From Candidatus Bathyarchaeia archaeon (lineage in GTDB: Archaea > Thermoproteota > Bathyarchaeia > Bathyarchaeales > Bathycorpusculaceae), in contig JAVZLK010000028.1 of NCBI GenBank assembly GCA_038883795.1, positions 1 to 20,278 on the forward strand: a DNA stretch of 20,278 nt. The letters are read 5' to 3'. The notes beneath the pieces are model-generated. The model ran no database searches and was not told where the DNA came from. It saw only the letters and a program-made list of their open reading frames with translations. Below are positions 138 to 16,742 of the stretch, piece by piece; position 1 is the stretch's first letter, and every line of letters starts with the position of its first letter. A program made the translations under genes and the position numbers.

Positions 138-598
138 CACTAGTTGTTTTATGTGAGAAAATGAACAATGTAGTTTATTTGTGCGTGTCGAACATGTTAA
201 AATCCTAAAGATAGATTGAAGGTGATCCAAATGACCTATTACTATGGTGCCATATATAAAACGAAATTATGGATTTTGAAAAGTTGACCGAACGCGCCAA
301 GAAATACCCACTAGATTAGGTTGAGCAAATAAACTTGTACCCCAAAAGAAAAAATAATTGAAGTTGAAATAACTTTTGTTACCATCAAACCCGGCGTGCA
401 TAAATTTTAGGCAATTGATCAAAATGTTAATCCGGTACAAACTGCCCGTGCAATTAATAATCAAAGTGTGAAGTATAACGCAAGAAGTACAATCCGTATA
501 AAGAAAGCTGGTAATGTGAGCATTAGTCAAACATCTTTAGTAACAAAAAGATTTTATGAAACTAAAAATACTTGTTACATATCGGGAAATATTGCAGT

Positions 599-1270
599 AT
601 GTCTAAAAATGCTAAATTTCAAAAATTATTTGAGCCTGGTAAGATAGGAAAAGTGGAAATCCAAAATAGAATTGTTATGTCGCCTATGGCAATTATCGGA
701 CTTGCAGAACTAGATGGAAGGTATTCAAAAAAGCCATAGATTTTTATGTTGCTAGAGCCAAGAGTGGTGTTGGACTAATAATAGCTGGTGCCGCTTCGCC
801 CAGTCCACTTTTAGAAGCAGTGAGTTAACTGTTGATGAAATTGAGAGTGCAATAGAAGGGCATGCAGCCGCTGCAAGGATTTGTAAAATTGCTGGTGTAG
901 ATGCTATTGCAATAGCTGGTTATGGAGGTTACTTCCTGGATCAATTTCAAACTGAACTTTGGAACAGGCTGGCAAGGTTAGCAATCTTGCATTTGGTCGA
1001 GGAGCGTGTTAAAAAAAAGAAATAAAAATATCGACAAATACTCAACTTATTGAAATAATCGAGAGAGGCGCTGTCGTCGCTATCAATGGCTCCAAGAGTT
1101 TATTAAAAGCTGATTCAATAGTTTTAGCGTTAGGTTTGAAATCTGAAACTAAACTTTGGGATGCTCTTAAAAATAGATTGCCTGAAGTATACGCTGTCGG
1201 AGATTGTATTAAACCCCGAAAGATTTTGCATGCTATTTGGGAAGGCTTCCACATTGCTCGTGTAGTTTAG
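599..1270 (+). pseudogene. Collapsed NADH:flavin oxidoreductase (old yellow enzyme / 2-enoate reductase-like) pseudogene
   Basis: N-terminus MSKNAKFQKLFEPGKIGKVEIQNRIVMSPM, a frameshift to AIDFYVARAKSGVGLII, then LTVDEIE...GYGGYFLDQFQTELWNR, then directly the C-terminus ADSIVLALG...EVYAVGDCIKPRKILHAIWEGFHIARVV*. Large internal deletions and stops. Confidence 0.88.
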
Positions 1271-1487
1271 ATCAAAAACAGCGTGTATTACGATTAGAAA
1301 TGATTATAGAATGTTAATCAACTCCGTGTAAGTGAGCAAAAAGCGGTCATCGGCGCTTGGCTTTAATAAATGACAAAAATTCTGATGGTGAGAGATTTAG
1401 CACTTATACGCCCCTTATAGCATATGAACGCGATTATCGTTTAGGCAAGGTAATTAATATCATCCGCCAATATCAACAGTTTATAAA

Positions 1488-1523
1488 ATAACTTTTGAAG
1501 GTTCCCGAGAGTTTTAAAGTTAT
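1488..1523. promoter_or_regulatory. Inverted repeat upstream of ackA (possible operator)
   Basis: ATAACTTT (1488-1495) and AAAGTTAT (1516-1523) are perfect 8-bp arms with a 20-bp spacer in AT-rich DNA. The function is inferred. Confidence 0.25.
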
Positions 1524-1688
1524 AAAACCTCATATACATGTTTATTATGCTTACTAGGCGAAGCAAAATAAGATAAAAAATAGATAATTAGCGAAAACTC
1601 CTTCGGCTTTAATGGATAAATTTAGTAATAATTCAGCAAAACTTAAAATAAATGTTACCTAAACGTTTTGAGGTAGTGAGGTAGAGTA

Positions 1689-3086
1689 ATGAAAGTTCTG
1701 ACATTAAACTGTGGGAGTTCCTCTGTAAAGTATATGCTTTATAATTGGGATGAGAAAGCAATAATGGCAAAAGGAATAGTTGAGAGAGTGACAATCGGTG
1801 GCACATATTGTATACATGAAGCTATAGGGAGAAGCAAAATCAGGATTGATTGTGATTGCTTAAATCACGCAGCAGCCGTCAAGTTGATATTGGATACATT
1901 AACACATTCAAATTATGGTGTCATAAATGACCTATCAGAAGTTAATGCAGTGGGACATCGTGTGGTTCATGGAGGAGAAAATTTTTCGGAGTCTGTAATC
2001 ATCGATGATACTGTACTTCAAACAATTAAGAACTTGGCCAGCTTGGCACCCTTACATAATCCGTATAATATTCTTGGTATCGAAGTAACAAAGAAATTTT
2101 TGCCAAATATTCCGCATATAGCCATTTTTGATACAGCATGGCATCAGACCTTGCAACCACCACAGTACTTATATGCTACACCATATGATTGGTATAAAAA
2201 GTATAGAATACGGAGGTATGGTTTCCACGGAACATCATTTTTATATGTGTCCAGAAGAGCAGCAGTACTACTTGATAAAGAGCCCTCTAAATGCGATCTA
2301 ATAATATTGCACATAGGAAATGGCGCCAGCGCAAACGCTGTTAAAAATGGTGTATCCTTTGACACTAGTATGGGCTTTACCCCTCTTGAAGGGTTAGTTA
2401 TGGGCACACGAGCAGGAGATCATGACGTTGCGATAGACTTATACATAATGGAGAAGGAGAACTATTCAACTAAGGAAATTTACAATGTTCTAAATAAGAA
2501 AAGCGGTCTGCTGGGAATAACCGGTAAATACATTGACAGAAGAGACATTATGGAAGCTATAAAGAAAGGTGATAAGCAGGCTAAACTGGCACTTGAAATT
2601 GAAGCATACAGAATCAAGAAGTATATAGGTGCCTATATGGCTGCACTCGGCGGTGCGGACGCTATTGTATGGACTGCAGGGGCAGGCGAAATGTTTGACA
2701 CATTACGTGCCAAAGCAATGGACGGCCTGGAGTTTATGGGCATCAAGTATGACCCGAATAAAAACAAATTGGCAAGGAGTCAAAATGCTGAGTTCGACAT
2801 TTCAGCATCTGATTCAAAGCTCAAAATATTCGTGATTCCTACGGATGAAGAGCAGGTATTTGTAGAAGAGGTTATTAAGGCTATTGATGGGAGGTACCAT
2901 AAACATACAAAGTTCAAATATTCTTTTGAAGAAAGAAACTACAGAAATAAAATTAGGGATAGGGAATTCATAAGAGAGTTAGAAGAGGAACCGCGCAAGG
3001 CTATTGCGTTAGCACAGCCATTTCCAGATGAGTTGCTACCAGATAAAGCCAAACCATATGCATGGTGGTTGAAAAAGCTTATATGA
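1689..3086 (+). CDS. ackA: Acetate kinase with C-terminal extension
   Basis: Motifs LNCGSSSVKY, GHRVVHGGE, APLHNP, RRYGFHGTS, HIGNGAS, DTSMGFTPLEGLVMGTR and IPTDEE. GAGGT SD-like sequence upstream. Confidence 0.97.
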   Translation: MKVLTLNCGSSSVKYMLYNWDEKAIMAKGIVERVTIGGTYCIHEAIGRSKIRIDCDCLNHAAAVKLILDTLTHSNYGVINDLSEVNAVGHRVVHGGENFSESVIIDDTVLQTIKNLASLAPLHNPYNILGIEVTKKFLPNIPHIAIFDTAWHQTLQPPQYLYATPYDWYKKYRIRRYGFHGTSFLYVSRRAAVLLDKEPSKCDLIILHIGNGASANAVKNGVSFDTSMGFTPLEGLVMGTRAGDHDVAIDLYIMEKENYSTKEIYNVLNKKSGLLGITGKYIDRRDIMEAIKKGDKQAKLALEIEAYRIKKYIGAYMAALGGADAIVWTAGAGEMFDTLRAKAMDGLEFMGIKYDPNKNKLARSQNAEFDISASDSKLKIFVIPTDEEQVFVEEVIKAIDGRYHKHTKFKYSFEERNYRNKIRDREFIRELEEEPRKAIALAQPFPDELLPDKAKPYAWWLKKLI

Positions 3087-3123
3087 TCCAAAGATCCTTT
3101 AAAAAAGAATTCTGGTGAACAGG

Positions 3124-3357
3124 ATGACTATTGAAGATAAGATCAAAGAAATAGTTAGCAATATTTTTAAGGTTGAAAAGGAAAAATTAACTAGAGATAC
3201 ATCCTTCGTAGACGATCTTCACATGAAGTCTATAAACTTAATAGAAATGGTTGCATGGATCGATGAGGAATTCAATCTTGAAATTAATATAGGAGAAGTG
3301 AGAAAGAAAAAGACTTTAGGTGATCTTATAGATTACGTTGAAAAGCTAATTAGTTAA
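3124..3357 (+). CDS. Acyl carrier protein (atypical DDLHMKSIN attachment motif)
   Basis: 77 aa with the ACP pattern TSFVDDL-x-x-x-S36...IEMV..IDEEFNLEI...TLGDLIDYV. GGTGA RBS 5 nt upstream of ATG 3124. Adjacent to acpS. Confidence 0.9.
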   Translation: MTIEDKIKEIVSNIFKVEKEKLTRDTSFVDDLHMKSINLIEMVAWIDEEFNLEINIGEVRKKKTLGDLIDYVEKLIS

Positions 3358-3746
3358 CATAAAGATTTAGTTTTTGTAGCAACCGCAAAGGCTATGGCGT
3401 ATCCTGCATCATAAGATAGAGATAGGTGAATGTCAATTATACCTTGTGACATAGCCAGATCTTTTATCTTACCTGAAAGTCGGACAATCGGTTCTCCGTA
3501 TTTCCCATCGATTATCTCTATTTCAGTTAACTTAACGTTACTATTCCATCCCATTCGGATCGCTTTAAAAACTGCTTCTTTACCAGCAAATCTCATTGCA
3601 AGATAGATCACATAATCCTTTCGTGAAGATGCAAGCTTAAGCTCATGGCTGGTAAAAATTTTTTCTAAAAACTTTTTACCGCTTCTTCGTACTGCATCTT
3701 CCATTTTTTGAATTTCAATTATGTCAGTGCCAACACCATATATCAA
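3354..3746 (-). CDS. acpS: Holo-[acyl-carrier-protein] synthase (4'-phosphopantetheinyl transferase)
   Basis: Motifs GVGTDIIE, RFAGKEAVFKA, EIEI...GEP and HLSLSYD..YAIAF. TTG start. Convergent with the ACP gene, with stop codons overlapping at TTAA 3354-3357. Confidence 0.95.
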   Translation of the reverse strand: MIYGVGTDIIEIQKMEDAVRRSGKKFLEKIFTSHELKLASSRKDYVIYLAMRFAGKEAVFKAIRMGWNSNVKLTEIEIIDGKYGEPIVRLSGKIKDLAMSQGIIDIHLSLSYDAGYAIAFAVATKTKSLC

Positions 3747-3855
3747 AACTAAAACCTCAGCAAGTGTTCATTTACTTCGCTCAAATTATAATAGTTAATT
3801 TTTTGATTGTAAAAATAAATTAGGAAAAAAGAGAACGTCTTTGACTTTCAATACT

Positions 3856-4272
3856 TCACCTAAGTGCTCTAGCAACCGGTATAAAGTTCCCTGCTACTTC
3901 TCTTGTCGTTATTTCTACATAAAGTGGTAATTGCCTATTTTCTTCGGGGATATTATTAAGGTCTATCCCTTCAATGACCGGACAGAAAATCACCGGTCCT
4001 TCTGCCAACTGTACAACTCCAAAAGCACATGGTAAGATGGAATCGAATCGTGGTCCTCCAGAAGCCGGGCCTTTAGCGGCTTGCACCAACAGCAGTTTTC
4101 CTTTTCCACTAAATTCTGTCCATTCTAAGTCTGTTCCTTTGCATGTCCTGCAAACTGGTATTGGAAAGAATTGATAAGAACCACACCTTTTACATTTTTG
4201 CCCCACCAATTTGCCTTTAGCCAGATTTTCGTAAAAGGTAGTTACGTATCGCTCTGTGAAATCTAGAACCAT
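3856..4272 (-). CDS. DUF35-family Zn-ribbon/OB-fold protein (thiolase partner)
   Basis: GKLVGQKCKRCG...P.PVCRTC Zn ribbon, SGKGKL and GVVQLAEGP. Starts 1 nt after the thiolase stop. Confidence 0.92.
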   Translation of the reverse strand: MVLDFTERYVTTFYENLAKGKLVGQKCKRCGSYQFFPIPVCRTCKGTDLEWTEFSGKGKLLLVQAAKGPASGGPRFDSILPCAFGVVQLAEGPVIFCPVIEGIDLNNIPEENRQLPLYVEITTREVAGNFIPVARALR

Positions 4273-4273
4273 A

Positions 4274-5596
4274 TCATAACGCCTCCTTTCTTCTTAATAC
4301 CGTTACGCCAAATACCGGCCCTGTACCTCTGCCGAAAATAACAGCGCATTTAGGAACAGGGTGAATTTGCCGCTCACCACATTCGCCTCGCATTTGCTGG
4401 ACAGCTTCTATAACATCTATTATGGATGCGGGATCATAACAGTCGCCAAAGTGAATTTCCCCTCCATGAGTTTGTATTGGTTTCATTCCATCAAATGCTG
4501 TTTCCAAATCTTTTAGGTACTTCCAAGATTTACCAGGCGGGATATAACCAGCGATCTCTGGATCTATAAGATGCCAAGATAGATTAAAATCGTGTAGCCC
4601 AAAATAATCAATCTCTGATGGATCTAAGTCTGCCATTTCGTATGCACGTCGTACGGTAATTTCCTCAATTGGATGATAATTGTAGTCAGGCGTAGTTGGA
4701 CATGGGAAACCTCCTGTATGATAAACTCCAGATACCTCTATTGGCGTTTTACTTGTATATTTACTAGCCTCTTCTGTTGCACATAGCACTATCGCGGCAG
4801 CGCCGTCACACATGACTTTCCAATTACTCTTCCTTAAAGGCCAGTTGACGAATGGGTTATGCCTAGGTGACTTCATGTACTCAAATACATCGTCAAATCC
4901 CGCTTTTTTTGCCATCGTTTCGAAGTCGTCTTGACCATAAACAAGACTTTTCGGGTGAATAACTGCGCCCCGTCTTAGGGATATAGCAGCGCCGTTCAAT
5001 GCATCGTCAATTTCTTCCCAGGTTAGATGATATTTCTTGGCATATTGAAGTATTGTGAATATTTCTCTGAATCCTGGTCCACCTATGCCTGTTATCGGAT
5101 TATCATACGCTTGATCAAAACCAGAATATAAGTAGTCTGCATGTATTTCCCAAGGAATAGGTTTTCTAATTCCAGGGTGTTTGCGGTATCTTTGAAAGTC
5201 CTCGTCAAACATTGCAGAGGTTATGCTTGTAGCTGATACTACAACAATATCCTCCATGCCAGAGGCAATGGCATTACCAGCTATTGTAATACCCGCTGCA
5301 GCTAACCCGCATGCATGAACGAGTGAATAGCCCGGTTTTCCTTCTAAGCCGAGCCATGAATTTGCTATTGCATGTATGCACTTAGTTTTCATTTGATCTC
5401 CTTGAAACTGTCCCACAACTATAGAATCAATGTCGTCTATTTTAATACCAGCATCTTGCACAGCCTCCATCACAGCCCATGCTAAGAGTTCTCTCTCAGT
5501 CATGCCCTTCAACCAAGGAGAATCCAGAACCGTACCCATTTTTGTCATTCCGCAACCGATAATTGATACTCCCCGTTCCCATTTCCTTTTAGTCAT
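4274..5596 (-). CDS. Divergent thiolase-superfamily (SCP2/archaeal-type) protein, 440 aa
   Basis: VSIIGCGMTK N-terminus, HACG (nucleophile Cys position), DGAAAIVLC, AYEMADL.P.EID, EAVQQMRGECGERQ. ATG 5596 is preferred over 5647 because a TATA box overlaps 5646-5652. Confidence 0.88.
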   Translation of the reverse strand: MTKRKWERGVSIIGCGMTKMGTVLDSPWLKGMTERELLAWAVMEAVQDAGIKIDDIDSIVVGQFQGDQMKTKCIHAIANSWLGLEGKPGYSLVHACGLAAAGITIAGNAIASGMEDIVVVSATSITSAMFDEDFQRYRKHPGIRKPIPWEIHADYLYSGFDQAYDNPITGIGGPGFREIFTILQYAKKYHLTWEEIDDALNGAAISLRRGAVIHPKSLVYGQDDFETMAKKAGFDDVFEYMKSPRHNPFVNWPLRKSNWKVMCDGAAAIVLCATEEASKYTSKTPIEVSGVYHTGGFPCPTTPDYNYHPIEEITVRRAYEMADLDPSEIDYFGLHDFNLSWHLIDPEIAGYIPPGKSWKYLKDLETAFDGMKPIQTHGGEIHFGDCYDPASIIDVIEAVQQMRGECGERQIHPVPKCAVIFGRGTGPVFGVTVLRRKEAL

Positions 5597-5645
5597 ATTA
5601 TCATCTCTTTCCCCCTTTAATTCTTCTTCGATTATATCGAGAAAC

Positions 5646-5660
5646 ATATAAAAATTTTAT
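5646..5660 (-). promoter_or_regulatory. Archaeal BRE/TATA promoter of the thiolase-DUF35 operon
   Basis: The minus strand reads ATAAAATTTTTATAT about 50 nt upstream of ATG 5596, followed by the palindrome TCGAT-N3-ATCGA (5628-5640). Confidence 0.55.
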
Positions 5661-6039
5661 CTTTTTCTCTTTCTCTCTACCCAATCCACCCACACCCACC
5701 ACCCAATACAAAGAGATAAAACTAACTAAACGCCGTAATCTAAAATGGAAGGCTGTGCATGGATTCAGAAGCGTATCGGTTGCCTTAATGTTTCCAATAA
5801 AAGGGAATTCCAATAGGACAGTTGACTGAAAAAAGCGTGTTTAAAGCTCTTTAAACTTTGAAATGGAGTAATCGGCGGGACAGTCAGCTTCAATGACCGG
5901 TTTCTCCATTAAAGCACACTTATAGCCACATCACCAGCCATTATGAAAACAACATAGTGTCCACTTCACCATCCTTCGGATAGGCTTACCTTTCGCTTTA
6001 GCTAAAGCTTCCCTCATCAGCCTGAAGACTTCCTTCAAG

Positions 6040-6492
6040 TCAATAGCCACTTACTTCACCATTTACTTTTTCAAGGAAAGCCTTAACCCTTCTAACACAA
6101 TGCTTAGCTGTTTCCACACTTAAATTCAGTTTTGCCGAAAAACAGTTTAAAATCCCCCAAATCCCAGTTTTAAACACTTCTTTTCAACAAACAAGCTGCT
6201 TTTCGCCGGTTCAAACCCGGCCATCGGCACTGAACCTTTTCTCTGAAGAAAAGCTTCACCAAAAGAGGAAAGAGCTTTTTGTGTTACGTCGATTTTTTGG
6301 GTTTCCATATATTCTATAATGCTTTGCAGAGCTTTTTCGCAAATTATGCTTATATTTAGGTTTCTTTTCCGTGTTTCCTCGATTAATCTGAGCGGAAGGG
6401 TTATTCCAACTGTTTTCGGGTTCTTGTCTTCGAGTTTTTACTCGAGTTTGGCTTAATTTACTTGAGTGATTTAGGTTCAAACCCTCACTCAT
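6040..6492 (-). pseudogene. Split-type (SSV-like) tyrosine integrase remnant: RHH/CcdA-like IntN, att core and start of IntC
   Basis: MSEG...SQTRVKTRRQ, then a frameshift to KTVGITLPLRLIEETRKRNLNISIICEKALQSIIEYMETQ...QRKGSVPMAGFEPAKSS. This reads in frame through the antisense of the tRNA fragment. Frameshifted pieces WDLGDFKLF and KLNLSVETAKHCVRRVKAFLEK follow and resemble the integrase SAM-like domain. No catalytic domain remains. Confidence 0.6.
6203..6230 (+). other. tRNA 3'-end fragment (T-arm plus acceptor strand), putative attachment-site core
   Basis: GCCGG-TTCAAAC-CCGGC T-arm (6205-6221), then acceptor strand CATCGGC and discriminator A. There is no D-arm, anticodon arm or 5' acceptor strand upstream. 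Confidence 0.8.
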
Positions 6493-6650
6493 GGCCCAAA
6501 CACCTCTGAGACACTTCATTACTTTATTCCAATTTTTTCTAAAATTTGCTTAAACAATTCACAAATTTTAGGGTATTTCTTGACTTTGTGTGGCTGCTGA
6601 CAGCACATGAAGGGCACAGAAAAAAGATGGCGGTGGATTTGGTTTTTGGT

Positions 6651-6665
6651 GGAAAATTTTTATAT
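6651..6665 (+). promoter_or_regulatory. Archaeal BRE/TATA promoter of the ADC-family gene
   Basis: GGAAAATTTTTATAT ends about 35 nt upstream of ATG 6700. Confidence 0.6.
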
Positions 6666-6699
6666 TTGAAAATCTAAACACATATCCTTGGTGTTGATC

Positions 6700-7500
6700 A
6701 TGAAAGTGAAATACAAAAATACTAAAGATGACTTTGTAAAGGCGCTCTCTGACCACGAACCGCACTTCAAGGGAATGAATCGTTTAGCTGTGTACTATGA
6801 TATTAGCTATGACATTTTACGGGAGTATCTGCCACCTCCACTGGAACCTGGCGACACACCTGAAGTCGAACTAATGTTCTTTGATACCCCGCCTCAAGGT
6901 GTGGTAAGGGAACCAGCAGAAGTGATAGGTATGTTGCCGAGAGGTCACAGAGAATTTGCGATATTCCTAAGTGCTAAATACAAGGAGTACCGAGGTTACT
7001 ATTGTCCATATATGTATGTTGCCTGGGATGATCATATGGCATCAGGAAGGGAAATTCACGGTTTTCCTAAAAAAATTGCAAATCTGCGGTTAGATAGATT
7101 CAAGGACGAAGTATGGGCAAGTGCCGAAAGGGGGGGAATCGAACTTGTATCAGTTAAGGCAAAGCTGACGCAACGCCTTCCAGCAGGCGAAATGCCTAAG
7201 CCTATACCCCATTTTGCATTAAAATTCTTACCAGAAATCGGTGGAAAGGTAGGTTTTGTTGGTAAGCCTCAAATAGTTATGACTCAAGGGAAAGCCAAGC
7301 TAAATGGCGAACTTTGGAATGGAACTGCAGAAATCACTTTCAAAGAGTCAGACTACGATCCGGTGTATGAACTTAAACCTGCGGGGAAAATTAAGCGCGT
7401 TGTATTTGCTACTGACTTGGACTATTCATTTAAGGGCCAGGTAATAGCTGAATGTAAACCCGAAGACATATACCCATTTGTTTGCTTTAGATATCGATAA
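6700..7500 (+). CDS. Acetoacetate decarboxylase (ADC)-superfamily protein
   Basis: YLPPPLEP, HREFAIF, GYYCPYMYV, the Schiff-base motif SGREIHGFPKKIA, and DPVYEL near the C-terminus. Confidence 0.88.
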   Translation: MKVKYKNTKDDFVKALSDHEPHFKGMNRLAVYYDISYDILREYLPPPLEPGDTPEVELMFFDTPPQGVVREPAEVIGMLPRGHREFAIFLSAKYKEYRGYYCPYMYVAWDDHMASGREIHGFPKKIANLRLDRFKDEVWASAERGGIELVSVKAKLTQRLPAGEMPKPIPHFALKFLPEIGGKVGFVGKPQIVMTQGKAKLNGELWNGTAEITFKESDYDPVYELKPAGKIKRVVFATDLDYSFKGQVIAECKPEDIYPFVCFRYR

Positions 7501-7703
7501 ATCCTTTTTACGTTCCCACTTTTTTATTTCGCTCTTCTCAAGAAGCGGCGTTTAGTAGGTTTTGCGTTTTATTTTTGAAGGTTTTAAAAGCATAGCACTA
7601 AGTTACCAAATGATTATGGATAATGCTTCTGAACACGCAACAACATCATGGTACATGCTATAATGGTCGTTTCCAGACACAGGTTTACAGGCAGATGTCA
7701 TTT

Positions 7704-9074
7704 TCATTCGCAAGGAAGTTCTAAGGCCGCGTTTTTTCCGGCTATTCGACCTGAAGTGAAAGCCCATGCTAGGTGCATTCCTGATATGGTATTAACACCA
7801 AAAATACCGCCATTACCTACTTGACCCACAGCGTATAATCTCGGGACAATTCTGCCTAAAGTATTAATCGTTTGACATTTTGAATTAATTTTTAGCCCTC
7901 CCTCTGTAAGAATAACTTTCACTGTTGCCTTCAACGAATAGAAGGGAGAAGCCTTTATTCCACATCCAAAATTAGTTCTTCCGAACTCCAAATCTTTTTT
8001 CATTTTGACATAAATATTCCATGTATATATCGTTTTCTTCAGTTCTTTTATTGATATTCTTAATTTTTTGGCTAATTTTTCCAAAGTATCCGCCTCGATC
8101 AAGTAGCCTAGATCCTTGTATGTCTGGTAAAAATTTACACCTTTGATTGCCACTTGTCTATCAAAAATAACGTAGCATACTCTTCCAGGTTGTGCGAGTA
8201 TGGCGGCATTTTGTAACGGATAGGCAGACAATTCATTTACAAACCTCTTCCCCTTTTTGTTAACTAAAATGGCACCATTTACAATGAAGCTTCGCGATAT
8301 AAATGTATGATCTACCATTGGACCGCATGGCTGTCCACCAATATTCATATTTACCATATCTACTCCTATCGCACTAGCCATTTTATGACCGTCTCCGGTA
8401 TTACCAGGATTACATGCGGTCGCTATATTGACTGTTTCAATAGGACAATATTTTCTTCTCATCCTTTTATTTGCAGCAAAGCTACCAGTAGCAAGAATCA
8501 CCGCTTTTTTGGCCTTAATTTTTAGTATTTTTTTTCGTTTAAGATCTTCTGCTTTGACTCCTATAACCTCTCCGCCTCGGCTCCTAATCAATCTAACAGC
8601 CTTAGTATTTAATATAATTTCTACACTTCTTTTTTCTGCCGCCTCCTTGAGTACTTTAATGTAAGCACTAGAATTAGGTAAAACTGCGTGACACCTTGGA
8701 ACTGTGCATTCATCTCTAGGATAAACTTTATCTTCAAATTTAACCCCCAATTGTGTCAACCAATCAAATGTTTCTCCTGATTTTTCCGCCAGAAGTTTTA
8801 GAAGTTCAAGATTTGACGCGCCTCCTCCCACTTTAACCATGTCTTTATAGGCAATTTCAGGAGAATCATATATCTTGTGTTTTTTTTGAATATGTGTTCC
8901 CACGGCAAATAATGTTCCTGCTGAAAGAGCGGTATCGCCACCAACAAAGGGCATCTTCTCAAGAACAATGACATCAGCTTTATGCTCGGCCGCTTCAACG
9001 GCTGCAGATAATCCGGAACCACCCCCTCCCACTATTAATACGTCAGTTTCATAATTCCAACTTTTTTCGATCAT
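7704..9074 (-). CDS. FAD-dependent oxidoreductase, flavocytochrome c / fumarate reductase flavoprotein family (substrate unknown)
   Basis: DVLIVGGGGSGLSAA, LEKMPFVGGDTALSAG, KAVILATGSF, NTGDG, ILVNKKGKRFVNE, TEGGLKIN, LYAVG and SGRIAG. No haem motifs or signal peptide. Confidence 0.9.
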   Translation of the reverse strand: MIEKSWNYETDVLIVGGGGSGLSAAVEAAEHKADVIVLEKMPFVGGDTALSAGTLFAVGTHIQKKHKIYDSPEIAYKDMVKVGGGASNLELLKLLAEKSGETFDWLTQLGVKFEDKVYPRDECTVPRCHAVLPNSSAYIKVLKEAAEKRSVEIILNTKAVRLIRSRGGEVIGVKAEDLKRKKILKIKAKKAVILATGSFAANKRMRRKYCPIETVNIATACNPGNTGDGHKMASAIGVDMVNMNIGGQPCGPMVDHTFISRSFIVNGAILVNKKGKRFVNELSAYPLQNAAILAQPGRVCYVIFDRQVAIKGVNFYQTYKDLGYLIEADTLEKLAKKLRISIKELKKTIYTWNIYVKMKKDLEFGRTNFGCGIKASPFYSLKATVKVILTEGGLKINSKCQTINTLGRIVPRLYAVGQVGNGGIFGVNTISGMHLAWAFTSGRIAGKNAALELPCE

Positions 9075-9291
9075 TGAACATCAGTAAGAGGGAGGGATAA
9101 AATGTAAATAAAGTTTTTTATGTCGTTTGTCATCGAAAATGTACCTTCATCATCAAGTTTACATGAACTTTTCTGCATCCACATACTTTACATACTCGAA
9201 AGGTCTATGATGCGTTTTGGTCAGCGTATAGACGCATGCCTCCTTTATGAGGGGAATCAGCCTTTGGAGGTGGCATGTTAAGGTTTAATGC

Positions 9292-9639
9292 TTATGCACA
9301 CGCAGCTCGCTTATTTACAACCCTTTGTATTCCACAGTCACAGTTTCGGTTTCCTGGCAACCTCCTTCTAACGATTTCCTGAAATTCTTCATGCTTAGGC
9401 TTGCCATATTCAGCTGGCTGACCTCTTCCTGACTGAAGCCCGTCACGAGAAGAAGCTGTTCCTAAACTCATCAACCATCTTCTCGCTTTTAGTTTGGGGC
9501 TTTGTCGTCTGTAAGTATTTTCGGATTCTCCTAAACGGCTCAAGCATATCCTCACCCAACCTTTCGCCGTTTTTAATTCGCTTTCAACATGGGTTTTCAG
9601 AAAATCGCAACCTCATTTTGGAAAATCCCTAATCCTAAG
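9292..9639 (-). pseudogene. Second, heavily deleted archaeal tyrosine integrase remnant
   Basis: Frameshifted pieces LRIRDFP | GCDFLKTHVE.RIKNGERL | EDMLEPFRRIRKYLQT | QLLLVTGFSQEEV...EEFQEIVRRRL resemble, from recall, successive segments of an archaeal site-specific integrase family. The catalytic segment is absent. Confidence 0.5.
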
Positions 9640-10092
9640 CTCTACTGTTCCAGTCTAGTTGCTAAGTGTTTCTGTGCATAGTGCCTATGCACCAACAAAG
9701 CATATGCCACTCGGGTTGGCGCGCGCAATATTCGGGGCGATAGAAGCGGGCAAAGAACAAAACAAGGTGTAGGCTGAGGCGGACGCAGAGAAGATGGGGA
9801 GTCGCAACATCCATAGGCCACAACCTAGCCGTTCTGAACAGGCTGAAATGCGCCAAAACCCTCAACATAACCTCAAGCCAATACTTGCAAACGCTGAGCC
9901 ATAAACCTCAAAGCAAAAGATACGCCGACCAGCTAGCACACACCATGAAACAACAATCCATAAAATGAAACCCGACAAAAGGCTTTAGGATGTTGCCAAA
10001 TCCCACTTTGCACGGCTTCTATGGAGCAAGCTTTTTAGGGCTTAAAAACTCTGCAAGCTTCTTCAAAGCCCAAACCAAAACGTTGTTAAGGA

Positions 10093-10717
10093 TCATTTCA
10101 GGTGCTGCTCCGACTTTTCGGCCAGCCTCTCAACATCCTCGTAAAACCGCTTCTCCAACATAAGCTGAACAAAATCTGCGTTAGCATACTTCTTAACGGT
10201 TAAAACCCCTCTCAGCAGGCTCAGCTGCAAAAAACTCCAGCTGAAAGGATTCAGTTGCAAGCTTGCAACTTTACCTTTATAAAAAAGCTTCTTTACATTT
10301 TGCAAATCAGACGCTCTGGAAGGATTTCCGACGCCAGGTCTCTCCTTAAGCCTATCGGGCAGATACATCATAACCCACCTGAGGCTCATGCCAGTTACCT
10401 CAGAAATCTTCCTTGCAGTTCAGCTCAGGCTTAACTCCAGCCTTAACATACAGTTCGCCAAGCTCCTCAAGCATTCTGCTTTTCTCCCCAGCAGGAACAT
10501 TCCGCCTGCAAACGTTTGCGATGAGCCTAGCAACAAGCCTTTGCTCATCAGACTCTATATGGTCAAGCCTAATTTTAGGCCGGTTTGGGTCAGCCTCAAG
10601 CCTATGCAAACCATCAACAACATTTCCATACCTGTCCAAAAGAACGGGGTAAAGCCGCCCAACACGCTCACTAGAAAACCTCAAACCCTCAACGATCTCC
10701 CCACCATCCCAAAGCAA
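10093..10717 (-). pseudogene. ParB/Srx-domain plus HTH protein gene with one frameshift
   Basis: GRLYPVLLDRYGNVVDGLHRL (ParB/Srx DGxHR), RLIANVCRR, then a frameshift near 10420 into ARKISEVTGMSLRWVMMYLP (HTH). This joins ORFs 10400-10717 and 10093-10389. Confidence 0.72.
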
Positions 10718-10828
10718 ACCCCACCAAGACTAAATATACACAATGAAAAACACATAAAATTTACCCTCAAGCACTTGAAAAACTCTAAAAATCATACAAA
10801 CAGAATTAGCCGACAACCCCGGGAATTA

Positions 10829-10845
10829 CGAAAAATTTTAATATT
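10829..10845 (+). promoter_or_regulatory. Archaeal BRE/TATA promoter of the VOC gene
   Basis: CGAAAAATTTTAATATT lies about 42 nt upstream of ATG 10887. Confidence 0.5.
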
Positions 10846-10886
10846 CAACCATATTTTTTAAACTCGATTAAAAAATCGTGGTTAAG

Positions 10887-11384
10887 ATGGTTGAAGGCTT
10901 TCCTAAAGATGTTACCCTCAGATTTCACCATGCAGGAATATATGTATCAGACCTTGACCGAAGCATAAAATGGTATTCTGAAATGTTAGGCTATAAACTG
11001 CTAAAGATTCGCGAAGGTTTACGACTGTTTGAAGTTAATGGTAGTTTCAAGTATTTTGAGTGCACAATGGCAATACTGCAGCATGGAAATCACTATCTTG
11101 AGCTGTTTAAAATTCACAACTTGAATATCGCCCCTTTTAATTACGATCACTATAAAGGCGAATGTGGAATGAAGCATGTATGCTTTGTTATATCGCCTAT
11201 GGAAAAATACAACAAGTTTATTGACTACCTTTACGAAAAAGGCGTGAAGTTTACCGTGGGAGGCAGCGACAAACATCATGTCAAGGAGCCCTTAGAAGTT
11301 GAGCATATTTCTCGCGTGTTCATTCTAGATCCTGACGGTATTCCGATTGAGATAGTTGGTAGAGAACCTGGAGTAGACTGGTGA
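10887..11384 (+). CDS. VOC / glyoxalase superfamily metalloenzyme
   Basis: FHHAGIYVSDLDRSIKWY, LELF, KHVCF and DPDGIPIEIV give the His/Glu/His/Glu metal-ligand pattern. Alternative GTG start at 10878. Confidence 0.9.
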   Translation: MVEGFPKDVTLRFHHAGIYVSDLDRSIKWYSEMLGYKLLKIREGLRLFEVNGSFKYFECTMAILQHGNHYLELFKIHNLNIAPFNYDHYKGECGMKHVCFVISPMEKYNKFIDYLYEKGVKFTVGGSDKHHVKEPLEVEHISRVFILDPDGIPIEIVGREPGVDW

Positions 11385-11953
11385 GACTGGAATATAATAT
11401 AATAGAGATTTTTAGTAATAATGTGCTGTCTCGCCCAAATAAAATATTTATTGAACCTAAGATTGTTAAGAACGAGTTTACCTGTCATTGGGTCAAGCTA
11501 TCTATGACGTTATATAAGTCTTATTATACTTAGTGAAACGCGGCAACGTTCGCCCTCATTACGGTCCTTCATTCAATAGGATGACTGCTACTTTTTGAAT
11601 TCCTAACTCTTTCTCAGACAAGCTATCCTCGCTCCATTGAGCTTTTCTATTATTCAGCATTCTTATAATAATTTTCTACGTAATCTCTTTAAAGAAACAA
11701 CACAATTTGCAGGCAACTTTACTTATCTTGTTATCATGACCACAGCTTCGTTGCGCCCAACCCCCCTCTGTAAAATAACCCAATTATTCAGTCACATACA
11801 ACGTTAAGAAAAAGCAGCAAGAACCATGCCTACCTCGTGCTTACCACAAATTAAAAGAAAAAGATTAATTAAAACGCTGTACAACTAAGCATAGAATTTA
11901 ACTTTAACGTTATCTATATTTTGCCTATAGATACAGGACCGAAACAAATACGT

Positions 11954-12691
11954 TTAAATCCCCAAATAAGCTTTTCTAAGAGTTTCACTACTAAAGAGTT
12001 CTTCCGCAGTTCCATGTGCAACAATTCTTCCTTCTGACATCACATAATTCCTATTTGTGATTTTAAACGCTGATCTAACATCTTGCTCAACAAGTAGTAC
12101 GGAAATCCCAGTTTGCCCAATATTTTTTATTTGCTCAAAGCAGCTTCGCTTTAACTTTGGTGCGAGCCCGGCTGTAGGTTCATCGATACACAGGAGCTTT
12201 GGGTTAGCCATTAAAGCCCTCCCGATAGCTAGCATTTGTTGCTCACCTCCTGACAAAGTCCCTGCAATTCTACGCTCCATTCTCTTCAGCGAAGGGAAAA
12301 GTGCATAGACGATCTCTAGTCTTTTCTTAATTTCTTCTTTGTCTTTACATGTATACGCACCAGCTTTTAAATTTTCTATTACTGTCATTTCAGGAAATGG
12401 CCTACGCCTCTCCGGGCAGAGTATTAAACCTTTATTTGCTATTTCATGAGGCAATAATTTCTCTATTCTTTCTCCATCAAATTTCACCATACCCTCGAAG
12501 GTTACGTTTCCATATCTTTTCTGATCCATCCTAACAAGTCCCGATATTGCACGCAACAAGGTCGTTTTTCCTGCCCCATTTGGGCCTATAACCCCAACTA
12601 CTTCACCAGAGCCAACTTCAATGTTAATGCCATTAAGTATCAGAGCCCCTCCATAGGCAACTTTTAGACTTTTTACCTCAAGCACTACCAA
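11954..12691 (-). CDS. livF: LIV/HAAT-family ABC transporter ATP-binding subunit (LivF-like)
   Basis: GPNGAGKTT, PERRRPF, AGTLSGGEQQMLAIGRALM, DEPTAGLAP and LLVEQD. Confidence 0.95.
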   Translation of the reverse strand: MVVLEVKSLKVAYGGALILNGINIEVGSGEVVGVIGPNGAGKTTLLRAISGLVRMDQKRYGNVTFEGMVKFDGERIEKLLPHEIANKGLILCPERRRPFPEMTVIENLKAGAYTCKDKEEIKKRLEIVYALFPSLKRMERRIAGTLSGGEQQMLAIGRALMANPKLLCIDEPTAGLAPKLKRSCFEQIKNIGQTGISVLLVEQDVRSAFKITNRNYVMSEGRIVAHGTAEELFSSETLRKAYLGI

Positions 12692-13421
12692 TTTCCTCCT
12701 CGCCTATATAAGCTTCAATCACATTCTTATCTTTCACCACTTCTATGGGAGAACCATATGCTATCACTTTGCCAAAATTAAGCACGATAACTCTATCGAC
12801 GATCTTCATTAGTTCAGATAATCTATGTTCAACTATGATAATAGAAATTCCTTGATTAACTAAGCCTTTTATTATTTTGCTCAATGAATCAATTTCATAC
12901 ATATTCACTCCAGCAAACGGCTCGTCAAGCAAAAGAATCTTAGGTTCTGTTGCCAACGCTCTGGCTATTTCGAGCTTTTTTAAATCGCCGTGAGGTAGAA
13001 CGGAGGCGAGTTCCGAAGCCCTATCCTTTAAACCAACTAATTCTAACAATTCCTTTGCTCGCCCTTCAGCTGCTTTATTTATTTGGCCTTTTTTCACCGC
13101 TTTGGCAAAAGCTGGTAACAGCACGTTTTCGAAAACAGACATATTACGGAAAGGTCTCACTTGTTGGAAGGTTCCTGTGATGCCTTCTTCAACTCTTTTG
13201 TGCTCGCTCCATCCTGTGATAACTTTGCCATTATATATAATTTGCCCGGAGTTCGGCTTCAATAACCCCATAATGAGACGTAAAAGAGTAGTCTTTCCAG
13301 CTCCATTAGGTCCTATAAGTCCTAATATCTGACCCTCATCTAAACAGAAACTAACATTATCGACAGCTCTTACTCCACCGAAAAGCTTAACCAAATTTTT
13401 AACCTCTAAAAGGACAACCAC
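12678..13421 (-). CDS. livG: LIV/HAAT-family ABC transporter ATP-binding subunit (LivG-like)
   Basis: FGGVRAVDNVSF, GPNGAGKTT, TFQQVRPF, LEIARALATEPKILLLDEPFAG, IVEH and VIEAYIG. Confidence 0.95.
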   Translation of the reverse strand: MVVLLEVKNLVKLFGGVRAVDNVSFCLDEGQILGLIGPNGAGKTTLLRLIMGLLKPNSGQIIYNGKVITGWSEHKRVEEGITGTFQQVRPFRNMSVFENVLLPAFAKAVKKGQINKAAEGRAKELLELVGLKDRASELASVLPHGDLKKLEIARALATEPKILLLDEPFAGVNMYEIDSLSKIIKGLVNQGISIIIVEHRLSELMKIVDRVIVLNFGKVIAYGSPIEVVKDKNVIEAYIGEEEIGSA

Positions 13422-13550
13422 TTTACATCAACTCTCGTATTTATTCTTTCCAAATCTTCCAAAATATTGCACTTAAAGCAGAGATCACGTAAACTATGTG
13501 TAAACGTACATATAACTGCAGACTCTTGCTCTAACATAATTATGGCCACC

Positions 13551-14852
13551 TTAAGTTTCAACATATTTAAGTCTTCTCGCTTTATTTGGGCAAATCTCTA
13601 CACATAGATTGCAACCACCACAAAGTTCAGGGTTCACTAACACCTTTTTATTCTCCCAATAATAGGCTTCACAGAGTATATCTGTACACAATCCACAGCC
13701 AGTGCACCTTTCTATATCCGTTTCTGCAATCACCTTCCCTACTTTGCAATCAACTTGAGCATTGTCCGCAATCCACTTTAATCCAAGTCCTTTAAAATCT
13801 TCAATTGTTTTGTAACCTAGCTTCTTCATATAATTGTTTAAGAATTCTACGGTGTTCTTAAATAATGCCCGTCCCTTCATAGCTACAGCAGAAGAAACCT
13901 CTACGCAGTTAGCACCAAGCATTATTAGTTGCACTATGTTCTCAGGTGTGTGAACTCCGCAAGAGGATATTAAATCTATGTTTGGTACGAATTTTGATAA
14001 GCGTGCAGTATAGTGCATAGCGATATGTATATTCGCTGGACTGTGTAAAGAAGCAATGGAAGGGTTCTTTTCTAGATAAGGAAACATGCTTCGACCTTCA
14101 TTGTATATGTCTGGAGGACATACAGAAGCCGTTGTGGCCCAAGTAAGATATTTTGCTCCTGCTTCTTTTACGCTGGATGCGACTTGTATTATTCTTGGAA
14201 ACCCGATTTCCGTGGAAAATTTAACACCCACACCAACCTTCACCGCTTTAGTAACACTTGCAACTATTTCTTTCAGCAGATCTGGCATATCAGATAATAA
14301 TGCACCAATATATTGGCTAGTAATTTCTTCTCTAGTGTACACTTTCAAAAGTTTTTCTCTTCCAAGGGGTGTGGGGCAAGCACAGTTCATTTCTATAAGA
14401 TCTACGCCTTCTTCTTCTTCAATTTTAGCGAGTTCCACCCAAGATTTTATATTTGCTCCATCACCCATAATACTTCCTATAAGCGGAACATCATCAGGAA
14501 GTTTTTCTTTGAGAATTTTTATAACCTTCACTGCCTCATCAATGTGATGCATAGCTGCTACCGGAGCCATGAATACATAAATTTTTTCTTTAGTCCAATA
14601 TGGAGCGTTAAAAGCAAGCCACCGCCCAGTAGGAGTTCCGCGTCCGCTCTTGAAACGCGTGCCGGATATGGCTGTGGCGAGAGTTAAAAAACCAGCACCT
14701 GCTTCCGCATGCTTAATTAGATGCTGCGCATATTTCTCAGGCACAATTCCCCAAGGTCCAGTCGCAGATGTTGAGGCCCAACCTAGAGGCATTCTAGCTT
14801 TCACGCCAGCAATTGTTACTGCAAGCTGAGGTGAAATCTTAAGCGTTTCCAT
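13551..14852 (-). CDS. Dihydroorotate/dihydropyrimidine dehydrogenase (PreA-like) FMN enzyme with C-terminal 4Fe-4S dicluster domain
   Basis: VPLIGSIMG, IEMNCACP (the ELNxSCP catalytic Cys loop), GVKFS, GVHTPENIVQLIMLGANCVEV, and C-terminal CTGCGLC...C / CGGCNLCVEICP. The start overlaps the livM stop (TAATG). Confidence 0.82.
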   Translation of the reverse strand: METLKISPQLAVTIAGVKARMPLGWASTSATGPWGIVPEKYAQHLIKHAEAGAGFLTLATAISGTRFKSGRGTPTGRWLAFNAPYWTKEKIYVFMAPVAAMHHIDEAVKVIKILKEKLPDDVPLIGSIMGDGANIKSWVELAKIEEEEGVDLIEMNCACPTPLGREKLLKVYTREEITSQYIGALLSDMPDLLKEIVASVTKAVKVGVGVKFSTEIGFPRIIQVASSVKEAGAKYLTWATTASVCPPDIYNEGRSMFPYLEKNPSIASLHSPANIHIAMHYTARLSKFVPNIDLISSCGVHTPENIVQLIMLGANCVEVSSAVAMKGRALFKNTVEFLNNYMKKLGYKTIEDFKGLGLKWIADNAQVDCKVGKVIAETDIERCTGCGLCTDILCEAYYWENKKVLVNPELCGGCNLCVEICPNKARRLKYVET

Positions 14853-15823
14853 TATTTTCCCCTCAATTTTACACCTTGAGCCTTTTTTTTTATCCTAGAA
14901 ATAATTCCTTCAGGGATGAAAAGAATTAAAATAATTAAAAGAAGAGCTTGCGATATATCCATAAGCTGAGGAGGGATTTTTGGAATTGTACGAATGTATT
15001 GAAAAATCGGGAAAAGTATAAAAGTGCCTACTACCGCGCCATAAATGGATGATGCTCCGCCAAAAATAGTCCAAATCAGCGGCTGGATCGAAAAAGTAAC
15101 TGACGTTATAGAAGTATCCGCGCCCTTCACTATATGCGCATAGATTGCTCCTGCTAGTCCAGCTAAAATAGCAGAGATGCAAAATGCCAATAACTTGTAT
15201 TTTGCGGTGTTTATTCCGCAAGTTCTGACCACAACTTCATCTTCACGAATAGCTCTGAAATATAATCCTAGCCTTGAATTTGTCAATTTCCAGCTCAAAA
15301 TTGTAACGCCAAGCATAATGATTAAAGAGTAATAATATATAAAACTTCTAGAGGGTGCTAGTGGGTCAGGAATACCTAATTTCATAGTGCCATATTCGCC
15401 TCCAGTAATATTTCCGAACATAACAATTAACCCCGTTAAGGCTATTGGAAATGCAAGTGTCCCTATAGACAAATAAGCCCCGTGTAATCTTGAGCATGGT
15501 GCTGCGACAATTAATCCGGCTATTAAGGCTGTGCACACTCCAATGGGAATGGTTATAAAAATAGGTAGCCTAAGATGCAAATTAAGTAAAACAGAGGTAT
15601 ACGCCCCCACTCCAAATAAAAAACCGTGGCCTAGGCTCCCCTGCCCACAATATCCGCCGAGTATATCCCAACTTATTGCGTAAATACTGTAGACATACGT
15701 CAAGGCCAATATGAATTGCCAATATGGGTTCGTAATTATAAAAGGAAGGATAAATAGTATGATAACAATTAAAAGGATCAATGTTTTGATTGAAAGGAAC
15801 TTTTCTAGAATATGTGACATCAT
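14852..15823 (-). CDS. livM: LIV/HAAT-family ABC transporter permease (LivM-like)
   Basis: SWDILGGYCGQGSLGH, RLHGAYLSIGTLAF, TGGEYG, AIREDE and YKLLAFCISA. Multiple hydrophobic helices. Confidence 0.93.
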   Translation of the reverse strand: MMSHILEKFLSIKTLILLIVIILFILPFIITNPYWQFILALTYVYSIYAISWDILGGYCGQGSLGHGFLFGVGAYTSVLLNLHLRLPIFITIPIGVCTALIAGLIVAAPCSRLHGAYLSIGTLAFPIALTGLIVMFGNITGGEYGTMKLGIPDPLAPSRSFIYYYSLIIMLGVTILSWKLTNSRLGLYFRAIREDEVVVRTCGINTAKYKLLAFCISAILAGLAGAIYAHIVKGADTSITSVTFSIQPLIWTIFGGASSIYGAVVGTFILFPIFQYIRTIPKIPPQLMDISQALLLIILILFIPEGIISRIKKKAQGVKLRGK

Positions 15824-15826
15824 TCT

Positions 15827-16696: not shown

Positions 16697-16717
16697 GTAA
16701 ATTTATTCACCTTGTCA

Positions 16718-16734: not shown

Positions 16735-16742
16735 GGAGAATT

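Follow-up and report, generated by a model that had tools for sequence, protein, structure and literature searches.

A conserved gene set linking a thiolase-fold enzyme, a DUF35 protein and an acyl carrier protein to Pta and kinase genes on a bathyarchaeial circle: a candidate route from carrier-bound acyl groups to ATP

Why would an archaeon keep a gene for an acyl carrier protein (ACP) between a phosphotransacetylase-acetate kinase (Pta-Ack) pair and a thiolase? The question is raised by a contig of a hot-spring archaeon, Candidatus Bathyarchaeia archaeon (JAVZLK010000028.1 of assembly GCA_038883795.1; "the window" hereafter denotes this whole stretch of 20,278 nucleotides), which closes into a circle and carries six intact genes: pta, ackA, acp, thiolase, DUF35 and acpS. 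Substrate-level phosphorylation via acyl-phosphate is textbook coenzyme A (CoA) chemistry, and ACPs are textbook biosynthetic carriers. The original prediction, made from the window alone, held that these genes form a carrier-protein-dependent system leading from an acyl group through acyl-phosphate to ATP. We found that the thiolase, DUF35, ACP, a Pta-like enzyme and a kinase, in some cases together with a phosphopantetheinyl transferase (PPTase), constitute a conserved set present in several bacterial phyla and in a second archaeon. This linkage, taken with residues of the Pta and of the ACP, argues for the predicted function, and with moderate confidence we propose that the six genes form one module that would conserve energy from a thioester on a dedicated carrier protein instead of CoA.

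Linkage of the gene set in bacteria and archaea

On the closed circle, pta, a decayed old yellow enzyme (OYE) gene, ackA and acp, all on the + strand, converge on thiolase, DUF35 and acpS on the - strand. Both the gene calls and the circle closure confirm this layout, which had been read from the sequence beforehand. The genes are as follows (coordinates are those of the window).

19269-20278, crossing the circle junction and ending at window position 137, + strand: pta, 339 aa; PF01515 363.7 bits, E 1e-108; TIGR00651 326 bits
1-137, + strand: 3' end of pta, consisting of 127 duplicated bases followed by the last codons and the stop
~566-1267, + strand: OYE/2,4-dienoyl-CoA-reductase-like pseudogene, fragments in three frames
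1689-3086, + strand: ackA, acetate/propionate-family kinase, 465 aa; PF00871 E 1e-139; TIGR00016 486.6 bits against a cut-off of 293.4
3115-3357, + strand: acp, 80 aa; PF00550 (PP-binding) 40.6 bits against 20.8, E 3e-10
3354-3746, - strand: acpS, 130 aa; PF01648 E 6e-16; TIGR00516 91.8 bits against a cut-off of 59.8
3856-4272, - strand: DUF35 protein, ChsH2-type zinc ribbon (PF12172 E 3e-11) and OB fold
4274-5647, - strand, likely start 5596 (440 aa): thiolase-fold protein, Thiolase_N and Thiolase_C_1

The convergent acpS and acp overlap by 4 bases, and the DUF35 gene starts one base past the thiolase stop codon. The zinc ribbon of the DUF35 protein is of the Cys4 type, and its OB domain is weak (18 bits against a cut-off of 27.1). 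The pieces of the OYE remnant correspond to positions 1-25 and 135-188 of Oxidored_FMN and to the C-terminal end of Pyr_redox_2, which agrees with its having been called dead. Family models of the ackA product end near residue 392-398, leaving a charged C-terminal extension of about 65 residues that has no family match.

Pta, Ack, ACP and AcpS have no other copy in the host genome, which is 87% complete, and the window ACP is the sole PP-binding domain in it. The claim that fatty-acid synthase (FAS) and polyketide synthase (PKS) genes are missing stood up as well. On the circle, neither a ketoreductase, a dehydratase or an enoyl reductase nor FabD or PlsX turned up; at the stated completeness the host genome has no match to PF00698 (FabD) or PF02504 (PlsX), and the only matches to PF00109 (ketosynthase) in it are weak ones on two ordinary thiolases. 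PF08541 matches one 502-aa open reading frame (ORF) on contig C47, and it also matches in archaeal control genomes.

To see how general the arrangement is, we searched for the thiolase subfamily across 5.8 billion proteins. The subfamily is sharply bounded, with 57 matches at 31-100% identity and the remaining listed matches at no more than 28%. When the subfamily alignment was run against one genome per species, 564 loci were confirmed, and a metagenome scan with the alignment gave 438; the best 80 of each were used. A metagenome scan with the single window thiolase as query returned no relative, whereas the alignment query succeeded. The best 80 genome loci are nearly all bacterial (Lachnospiraceae, Blautia, Pseudobutyrivibrio, Streptococcus, Collinsella/Atopobiaceae, Oscillospiraceae and Anaerolineae). 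A locus was considered evaluable if the thiolase had 4 kb or more of sequence on each side, and a feature was counted when it lay within 6 kb. Hidden Markov models (HMMs) of the neighbours gave the following counts near the thiolase in evaluable loci.

DUF35: 48/49 genome loci, 26/27 metagenome loci
ACP: 42/49 genome loci, 24/27 metagenome loci
Pta-like: 39/49 genome loci, 22/27 metagenome loci
Kinase: 32/49 genome loci (butyrate kinase, Buk, 30; Ack 2), 21/27 metagenome loci (Buk 19, Ack 2)
PPTase: 17/49 genome loci, 13/27 metagenome loci
ACP, Pta and kinase together: 31/49 genome loci, 21/27 metagenome loci

In other words, the conserved tie of homologous ACPs to pta, ack and thiolase, on which the original prediction had staked its interpretation, was recovered in both scans. 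Translated searches (tblastn) of the 80 genome loci with the window proteins themselves found DUF35 in 80, Pta in 60, ACP in 31, Ack in 18 and AcpS in 8, and DUF35 adjoins the thiolase in all 80. The usual order is a PucR-type regulator followed by thiolase, DUF35, ACP, Pta-like and Buk. Besides PucR-type regulators (24/80 loci), the recurrent neighbours are importers of the major facilitator superfamily (MFS) and reductases using flavin adenine dinucleotide (FAD) or flavin mononucleotide (FMN). The closest bacterial locus (L044, Anaerolineaceae) encodes thiolase, DUF35, a short-chain dehydrogenase/reductase, Pta, Ack, ACP and AcpS, with 42-53% identity to the window proteins. Altogether the gene set spans Bacillota, Actinomycetota, Chloroflexota and archaea. 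Thiolase-DUF35 pairs outside the subfamily do not share these neighbours: the host's three ordinary pairs (on C11, C5 and C36) have no ACP or Pta beside them, as ACP and Pta occur nowhere else in the host genome, and in the class three pairs belonging to a neighbouring subfamily likewise have neither.

The same genes also occur behind a different front end. In a second type of cassette, a PucR-type regulator is followed by a 601-aa serine hydrolase of the CocE/NonD type (Peptidase_S15), ACP, a Pta lacking the two CoA-contact arginines discussed below, and Buk, with no thiolase adjoining. Examples are found in Agathobacter ruminis (L226, 4992-10991) and Collinsella phocaeensis (L225, ~6100-12035); in Collinsella the hydrolase-type cassette sits a few kb from the thiolase-type one. 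Since the same ACP-Pta-Buk genes stand behind two formers of covalent acyl-enzymes, a cassette that receives acyl groups and passes them on to ATP would be favoured. The two cassette types fit a portable module that could take acyl groups from different acyl-enzyme-forming front ends.

Two archaeal members were seen. When 401 genomes sampled from the class were scanned with the subfamily profile, high scores were confined to the host genome, G000 (646 bits), and to G369 (449 bits). In G369, the second archaeon, ACP, thiolase, DUF35, Pta and Ack are contiguous on one strand (locus L247, 6307-10955, on the 731-kb contig C3), and the AcpS is divergent. This chromosomal operon is flanked by housekeeping genes (hisG, GTP cyclohydrolase, rubrerythrin, a ThiF-family gene and a thiamine pyrophosphate enzyme), and thus the six genes are a self-contained unit in archaea too. 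Within the window's own order, the thiolase was found in 2 of 301 genomes at E <=1e-30, and the other one is 31% identical. A profile of the window ACP has matches in 15 of the 301 genomes, a search with the single ACP found none in 4 same-genus or 24 same-family genomes, and neither thiolase nor DUF35 is present in any of the 15 ACP loci examined. The close ACP matches in the order belong to a cluster of Pta, Ack, a 427-aa TIGR03991-type GlmU-like hexapeptide protein, ACP and AcpS, found in two other families of the order (L009, 2096-6419, on contig C49 of genome G028; also L026, L028, L029, L030 and L008). Here the ACP motif is Glu-Ser and sugar-related genes (NagB-like, ROK kinase, GNATs) lie nearby. 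Hexapeptide acyltransferases such as LpxA use acyl-ACP, and the GlmU-like cluster may be a different ACP-dependent system. Pta itself occurs in 7 of the 301 genomes of the order, in all seven with ACP and AcpS beside it, and was not found in 147 other genomes of the window's family. Named close homologues of the window Pta come from Bathyarchaeia, Hecatella, Nitrososphaerota and several bacterial phyla. Most likely, the archaeon acquired the module from bacteria by transfer.

Residues of the transacylase, the carrier protein and the thiolase

The window Pta is a member of its family by the usual measures: it has a full-length PTA_PTB domain and passes the curated Pta model (TIGR00651; 326 bits against a cut-off of 311.2). 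In an alignment to M. thermophila Pta (1QZT), the catalytic residues Ser309, Arg310 and Asp316 correspond to window Ser308, Arg309 and Asp315, and Arg87 corresponds to window Arg88, whereas the position of Arg133 is taken by Met131. For P. gingivalis Pta with acetyl-CoA, the equivalents of these two arginines, Arg89 and Arg135, are reported to touch the 3'-phosphate and the beta-phosphate of CoA, respectively; replacing the arginines chiefly alters Km or moderately lowers activity, and the Ser-Arg site is essential (PMC6461089). We scored both positions in the 105 Pta-like proteins encoded within 6 kb of a subfamily thiolase. None of them has Arg at position 133 (mostly Leu or Met is found there) and only 3 have it at position 87, while the catalytic Ser-Arg is kept in 101. 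The Pta of G369 has Ser and Ala at the two positions. Among the 120 nearest homologues of the window Pta, 89 lack Arg at 133 and 43 show the Arg/Met pattern of the window. A control within genomes points the same way: each of five bacterial genomes has a single stand-alone Pta, with both arginines in place (5/5), and the ACP-adjacent paralogues lack both (8/8). The five Ptas of the GlmU-like clusters keep both CoA-contact arginines.

A phosphopantetheine arm borne on a protein has no 3'-phospho-ADP part, and the loss of CoA-contact arginines with retention of the catalytic site is what one would expect if a transacylase had exchanged CoA for ACP as its carrier. The pattern is suggestive, not proof. 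The original prediction had regarded oddities in the Pta and the ACP as each compatible with such a role, and in the Pta the missing beta-phosphate arginine turned out to be a defining mark of the whole linked subfamily. From these sequence comparisons we consider it likely that the Pta-like enzyme acts on acyl-ACP, in whichever direction, a claim that we hold more firmly than the overall pathway. The match of the window Pta to the PlsX model TIGR00182 is faint (20.6 bits against a cut-off of 243.4, E 2e-4), and several close Pta homologues carry a precomputed PF02504 (PlsX) match. A tree of Pta sequences has no canonical outgroup and was not used to choose between a single loss of Arg133 and its regain in the Arg-keeping archaeal clade.

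Structure prediction of the Pta-ACP pair, which had been suggested as a check, adds weak support for the pairing. With both partners supplied as alignments, the predicted complex scored 0.54 against 0.00 for the best control, no fewer than 90% of contacts were common to the runs, and partner pLDDT was at least 87. In the benchmark, 58 of 80 solved complexes attained the mark, as did 2 of 110 mismatched pairs, and scores of 0.60 or lower were seen in only 7 of the 80 solved complexes and in both of the passing mismatches.

The carrier protein also departs from its biosynthetic relatives. In FAS-type AcpP the canonical motif is Asp-Ser-Leu, whereas the attachment serine of the window ACP, Ser39, is preceded by Lys in the motif Lys-Ser-Ile, and AcpP equivalog models score it below their cut-offs. 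In 132 linked ACPs, the serine is kept in every one and Asp precedes it in just one; the residue before it is Ala in 59, Gly in 22, Ser in 16, Lys in 14 and Thr in 12. The Lys-Ser form is common to the ACPs of the window, G369 and L044. The oddity noted earlier in the window ACP is thus that of a subfamily without the canonical Asp-Ser and is compatible with the proposed role. AcpS passes the TIGR00516 holo-ACP synthase cut-off.

As for the thiolase, its nucleophile Cys113 is invariant in 27 of 27 subfamily members, and in the HDCF-type motif Asp353 is kept in 27 of 27 and His352 in 19 of 27. At the histidine position of the GHP (Gly-His-Pro) motif the window has Asp402, and the subfamily has Asn in 13, His in 9 and Asp in 5 of 27. 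With the exception of this histidine, the protein has the features of SCP2/archaeal-type thiolases (N and C domains, Cys and His-Asp). The nearest solved relatives are archaeal-type thiolases (best PDB matches 7YVY and 6ESQ), BbsB, SCP2 thiolases and PhlC. Of these, PhlC with its DUF35 partner PhlB is described as taking acetyl from a C-acyl phenol onto Cys88 without CoA (PMC6392133), a precedent for CoA-free acyl removal from a C-C bond.

The circular element, its host and its other genes

The window is contig C28, one of 81 in the bin, and its first 127 bases are an exact repeat of the contig end (bases 1-127 duplicate 20152-20278), giving a 20,151-bp circle. None of the other contigs in the bin has a terminal overlap of this kind. 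The circle junction falls within pta, and translation across it restores the intact 339-aa reading frame. The junction is also bridged by a 7,191-nt contig produced by a second assembler from sequencing run X1, composed of window positions 18662-20278, 151 letters and positions 279-5701. A search of sequencing runs matched no RNA run and a single DNA run, X1, to the window; X1 is probably the source sample, and the bridging contig is therefore a check on the assembly, not independent data. In the Logan contigs of this run, depth around the circle is about 18-19. Exceptions are summed depths of 132 at 5615-6281, 74 at 946-1612 and 76 at 6949-7615; loose contig ends lie at 5672, 5714 and 7570, and one X1 contig omits 5682-5798. 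The depth peaks and loose ends therefore show that short repeats or variant forms of the circle are present in the X1 sample. There is also a record of an identical thiolase protein on a contig of 27,931 nt, longer than the 20,151-bp circle.

The host bin contains a partial archaeal 16S gene on contig C3. Several circle ORFs have paralogues elsewhere in the bin: a ParB-like ORF (74%, C8), a VOC-family gene (70%, C16) and a Cas1-like fragment (61%, C8). Downstream of livF, a 123-nt intergenic repeat (window 11751-11872) is 99% identical to the end of C49 (C49:9047-9169); it may be a repeat common to circle and chromosome, or a recombination or integration site. The GC content of the circle is similar to that of the bin. 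Its tetranucleotide similarity to the large contigs is 0.928, sixth from the bottom among the 40 contigs that reach 10 kb; this value lies inside the range of the bin, at its low end, as expected for mobile cargo, and is not decisive for the host assignment. By the shared paralogues, the 123-nt repeat and the similar GC content, the circle appears to be tied to the bin. The remaining features of the circle are as follows.

6688-7500, + strand: acetoacetate-decarboxylase-family (ADC-like) gene, from family search; possibly same pathway
7704-9074, - strand: flavocytochrome-c/VprA-like FAD oxidoreductase, from family search; possibly same pathway
10400-10717, - strand: ParB-like ORF, no Pfam match
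11954-18140, - strand: Liv-type ATP-binding cassette (ABC) importer with two ATPases, two permeases and one binding protein
13551-14852, - strand: PreA/DHODH-like flavoprotein with two 4Fe-4S motifs, inside the Liv operon between ATPase and permease genes
18111-18470, + strand: Cas1-like fragment, PF01867 E 9e-4; a similar remnant on C49

No replication gene was recognisable on the 20,151-bp circle, and Rfam and tRNA scans of the window gave no matches. The stretches 5650-6690, 9075-10390 and 18470-19269 contain no convincing ORFs. The Liv-type importer is a candidate for substrate uptake, its tie to the module being only inferred. Of the two enzymes that might share the pathway of the module, only the FAD oxidoreductase recurs elsewhere (tblastn found it at 23 of the 80 genome loci, and found no counterpart of the ADC-like gene at any of them).

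Proposed reactions, alternatives and known systems

Based on these observations, the following sequence of reactions may be proposed. AcpS would arm the small ACP with phosphopantetheine, giving holo-ACP. The thiolase-fold enzyme, held by DUF35, would take an acyl group via its invariant Cys from a substrate of the beta-dicarbonyl type, such as a beta-keto acid, a beta-diketone or a C-acyl phenol, and would pass it to holo-ACP. The Pta-like enzyme would then phosphorolyse acyl-ACP to acyl-phosphate and holo-ACP, in other words perform PlsX-like chemistry on a Pta scaffold, and Ack (Buk in most of the bacterial versions) would make ATP from the acyl-phosphate. All of these reactions, as well as their catabolic direction and the class of substrate, are inferred from sequence. 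As to substrates, the VprA-like proteins, FMN reductases and MFS transporters near some bacterial operons suggest phenolic or enone compounds, and the Liv-type importer, the ADC-like gene and the FAD enzymes of the window suggest an imported compound. VprA/HcrB-like flavoproteins and FMN reductases near some bacterial operons led us to consider hydroxycinnamate reduction, as context only. Degradation of phloroglucinol or triacetate, which the rumen Streptococcus carriers and the ADC-like gene bring to mind, is a guess: no phloroglucinol-pathway gene was recognised among the annotated neighbours, and the ADC-like gene is not conserved.

Several observations weigh against this proposal. The window Pta keeps Arg87 and passes the Pta cut-off, so that it may still use CoA. 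The P. gingivalis Pta arginine mutants are reported to have lost only 58% and 21% of activity (PMC6461089), and because such effects are moderate, loss of the arginines is suggestive and not diagnostic; the only Ptb-like protein examined has Lys, not Arg, near the 133 column. In the same order, ACP and AcpS stand beside an Arg-keeping Pta with no thiolase, and adjacency alone is therefore no proof of ACP use. The linkage counts come from the best 80 loci per scan, not from all 564 and 438, and only the metagenome counts are independent of the neighbour HMMs, which were trained on genome loci. No substrate-specific neighbour is conserved across loci, and there are no catabolic neighbours beside the G369 operon. 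Decayed genes on the circle mean that its cargo could be under relaxed selection. Finally, a kinase and a phosphotransacylase can run towards acyl-ACP, fatty-acid kinase with PlsX being the precedent.

This last point leads to the main rival, in which the same module is reversed: the kinase and the Pta-like enzyme would load a free short-chain acid, by way of acyl-phosphate, onto ACP at the expense of one ATP, and thiolase-DUF35 would carry out a C-acylation of the Claisen or Friedel-Crafts type, yielding a beta-dicarbonyl or an acyl-phenol. All of the residue and synteny evidence fits either direction, and fatty-acid kinase together with PlsX does load ACP via acyl-phosphate. Moreover, the solved relatives PhlABC are reported to be biosynthetic, reversible C-acyl transferases (PMC6392133), and a Streptococcus thiolase/HMG-CoA synthase (HMGS)/DUF35 complex has reportedly been repurposed for antibiotic biosynthesis (PMC12960953). 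We nonetheless consider the reversed module unlikely. Conservation does not extend to further genes for biosynthesis, tailoring or export; what recurs instead are PucR-type regulators, MFS importers and FAD/FMN reductases, and in the window the module has an ABC importer and enzymes of catabolic type around it. Most of the carriers are fermentative anaerobes, which gain from substrate-level phosphorylation, and the hydrolase-fronted variant reads more easily as harvesting of acyl groups.

It might also be that the pathway is an ordinary one, in which thiolase-DUF35 cleaves beta-ketoacyl-CoA and Pta-Ack turns acetyl-CoA into acetate and ATP, with ACP and AcpS being unrelated passengers of a horizontally acquired island. 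The pseudogenes on the circle, the retention of Arg87 and of all catalytic residues in a window Pta that scores above the curated cut-off, and the relatives in the order whose ACP and AcpS genes adjoin an entirely canonical Pta-Ack pair would all agree with this. Yet a passenger would not keep its place between DUF35 and Pta in Bacillota, Actinomycetota, Chloroflexota and archaea alike, nor would it be expected that the linked ACPs form a subfamily of their own, that a PPTase accompanies the set in a good part of the evaluable loci (17/49 and 13/27), or that linked Pta-like proteins lack the CoA-contact arginines which housekeeping copies in the same genomes keep. A bystander role of the ACP thus seems to us improbable, more so than the reversal of the module. 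Still further down the scale, and in our opinion very improbable, is an archaeal ACP-dependent synthesis of fatty acids or polyketides with thiolase-DUF35 as the condensing enzyme. ACP and AcpS are present, and thiolase-DUF35 complexes have been proposed to supply the condensing activity of an archaeal fatty-acid synthase (bioRxiv 10.1101/2024.07.05.601840); but neither the reductases and dehydratase of such a synthase nor FabD or PlsX are found on the circle, the 87%-complete genome gave no match to FabD or PlsX, the subfamily of the thiolase is mainly bacterial and has Pta and a kinase as its constant partners, and the ACP was not found in the same-genus and same-family genomes searched.

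If the proposed direction of energy conservation is correct, its implications extend beyond this circle. It is possible, though we advance it only tentatively, that ACP, Arg-less Pta and Ack or Buk constitute a widespread, undescribed CoA-independent energy cassette that plugs into different acyl-enzyme formers: thiolase-DUF35 for C-C cleavage and CocE/NonD-type hydrolases for activated esters. Anaerobes would then harvest ATP directly from the acyl groups of plant- or sediment-derived compounds, and a conserved operon uniting an ACP with Pta-Ack-type chemistry would add a new route of energy conservation to those of anaerobes. It would also assign a function to thiolase-DUF35 and Pta subfamilies in hundreds of gut, rumen and sediment genomes, in which the thiolase and the Pta are currently annotated as acetyl-CoA acetyltransferase and phosphate acetyltransferase. 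In Bathyarchaeia, part of the Pta-Ack genes, used as markers of acetogenesis, would belong to the cassette and not to acetyl-CoA metabolism; since Pta adjoins ACP in all seven Pta-bearing genomes among the 301 sampled from the order, acetogenesis calls based on pta-ack may need revision. The idea is directly testable because culturable carriers exist, among them Streptococcus ovis, Pseudobutyrivibrio xylanivorans, Agathobacter ruminis, Dielma fastidiosa and Collinsella phocaeensis.

How does the module compare with known systems? Catabolic systems with a protein-bound thioester intermediate do exist, namely glycine reductase, through its protein C, and citrate lyase and malonate decarboxylase, through their ACP subunits. 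Glycine reductase releases acetyl-phosphate, from which acetate kinase makes ATP. All three differ from the module in their protein families and prosthetic groups. To our knowledge, no enzyme class other than PlsX is known to convert acyl-ACP and acyl-phosphate into each other; PlsX works with fatty-acid kinase on long acyl chains and serves membrane-lipid synthesis. It is distant kin of Pta, as the faint TIGR00182 match indicates, but by the same score the window protein is a Pta and not a PlsX. The archaeal acetoacetyl-CoA thiolase/HMG-CoA synthase/DUF35 complex (6ESQ, 6ET9) shares the thiolase-DUF35 adjacency, and the host has three such pairs. Its thiolase is only about 25% identical to that of the window, in which, unlike in this complex, the GHP histidine is replaced; it uses acetyl-CoA, and no ACP, Pta or kinase lies nearby. 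PhlABC likewise combines a thiolase-fold subunit with a DUF35 partner, and the subfamily profile has PhlC among its PDB matches. PhlABC is reported to take an acyl group from a C-C bond onto Cys without CoA and to lack CoA-binding residues (PMC6392133). Unlike the module, PhlABC needs the HMGS-like PhlA, has no ACP and delivers the acyl group to another phenol, and sequence similarity is low.

The CoA-dependent Pta-AckA and Ptb-Buk pairs are like the module in their families (PF01515 and PF00871), in the catalytic Ser-Arg, in gene adjacency and in the expected output, ATP from an acyl thioester via acyl-phosphate. What sets the module apart from them is a transacylase without the beta-phosphate arginine and mostly without the 3'-phosphate one, both of which canonical paralogues keep, encoded beside a dedicated ACP and often a PPTase. 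We found no description of a thiolase-DUF35-ACP-Pta-kinase operon or of ACP-dependent substrate-level phosphorylation in open-licence full-text papers and bioRxiv, supplements aside; in that literature, the parts belong to known families and their combination is not described. On the sequence evidence, the module is best read as a putative CoA-independent variant of Pta-Ack substrate-level phosphorylation.

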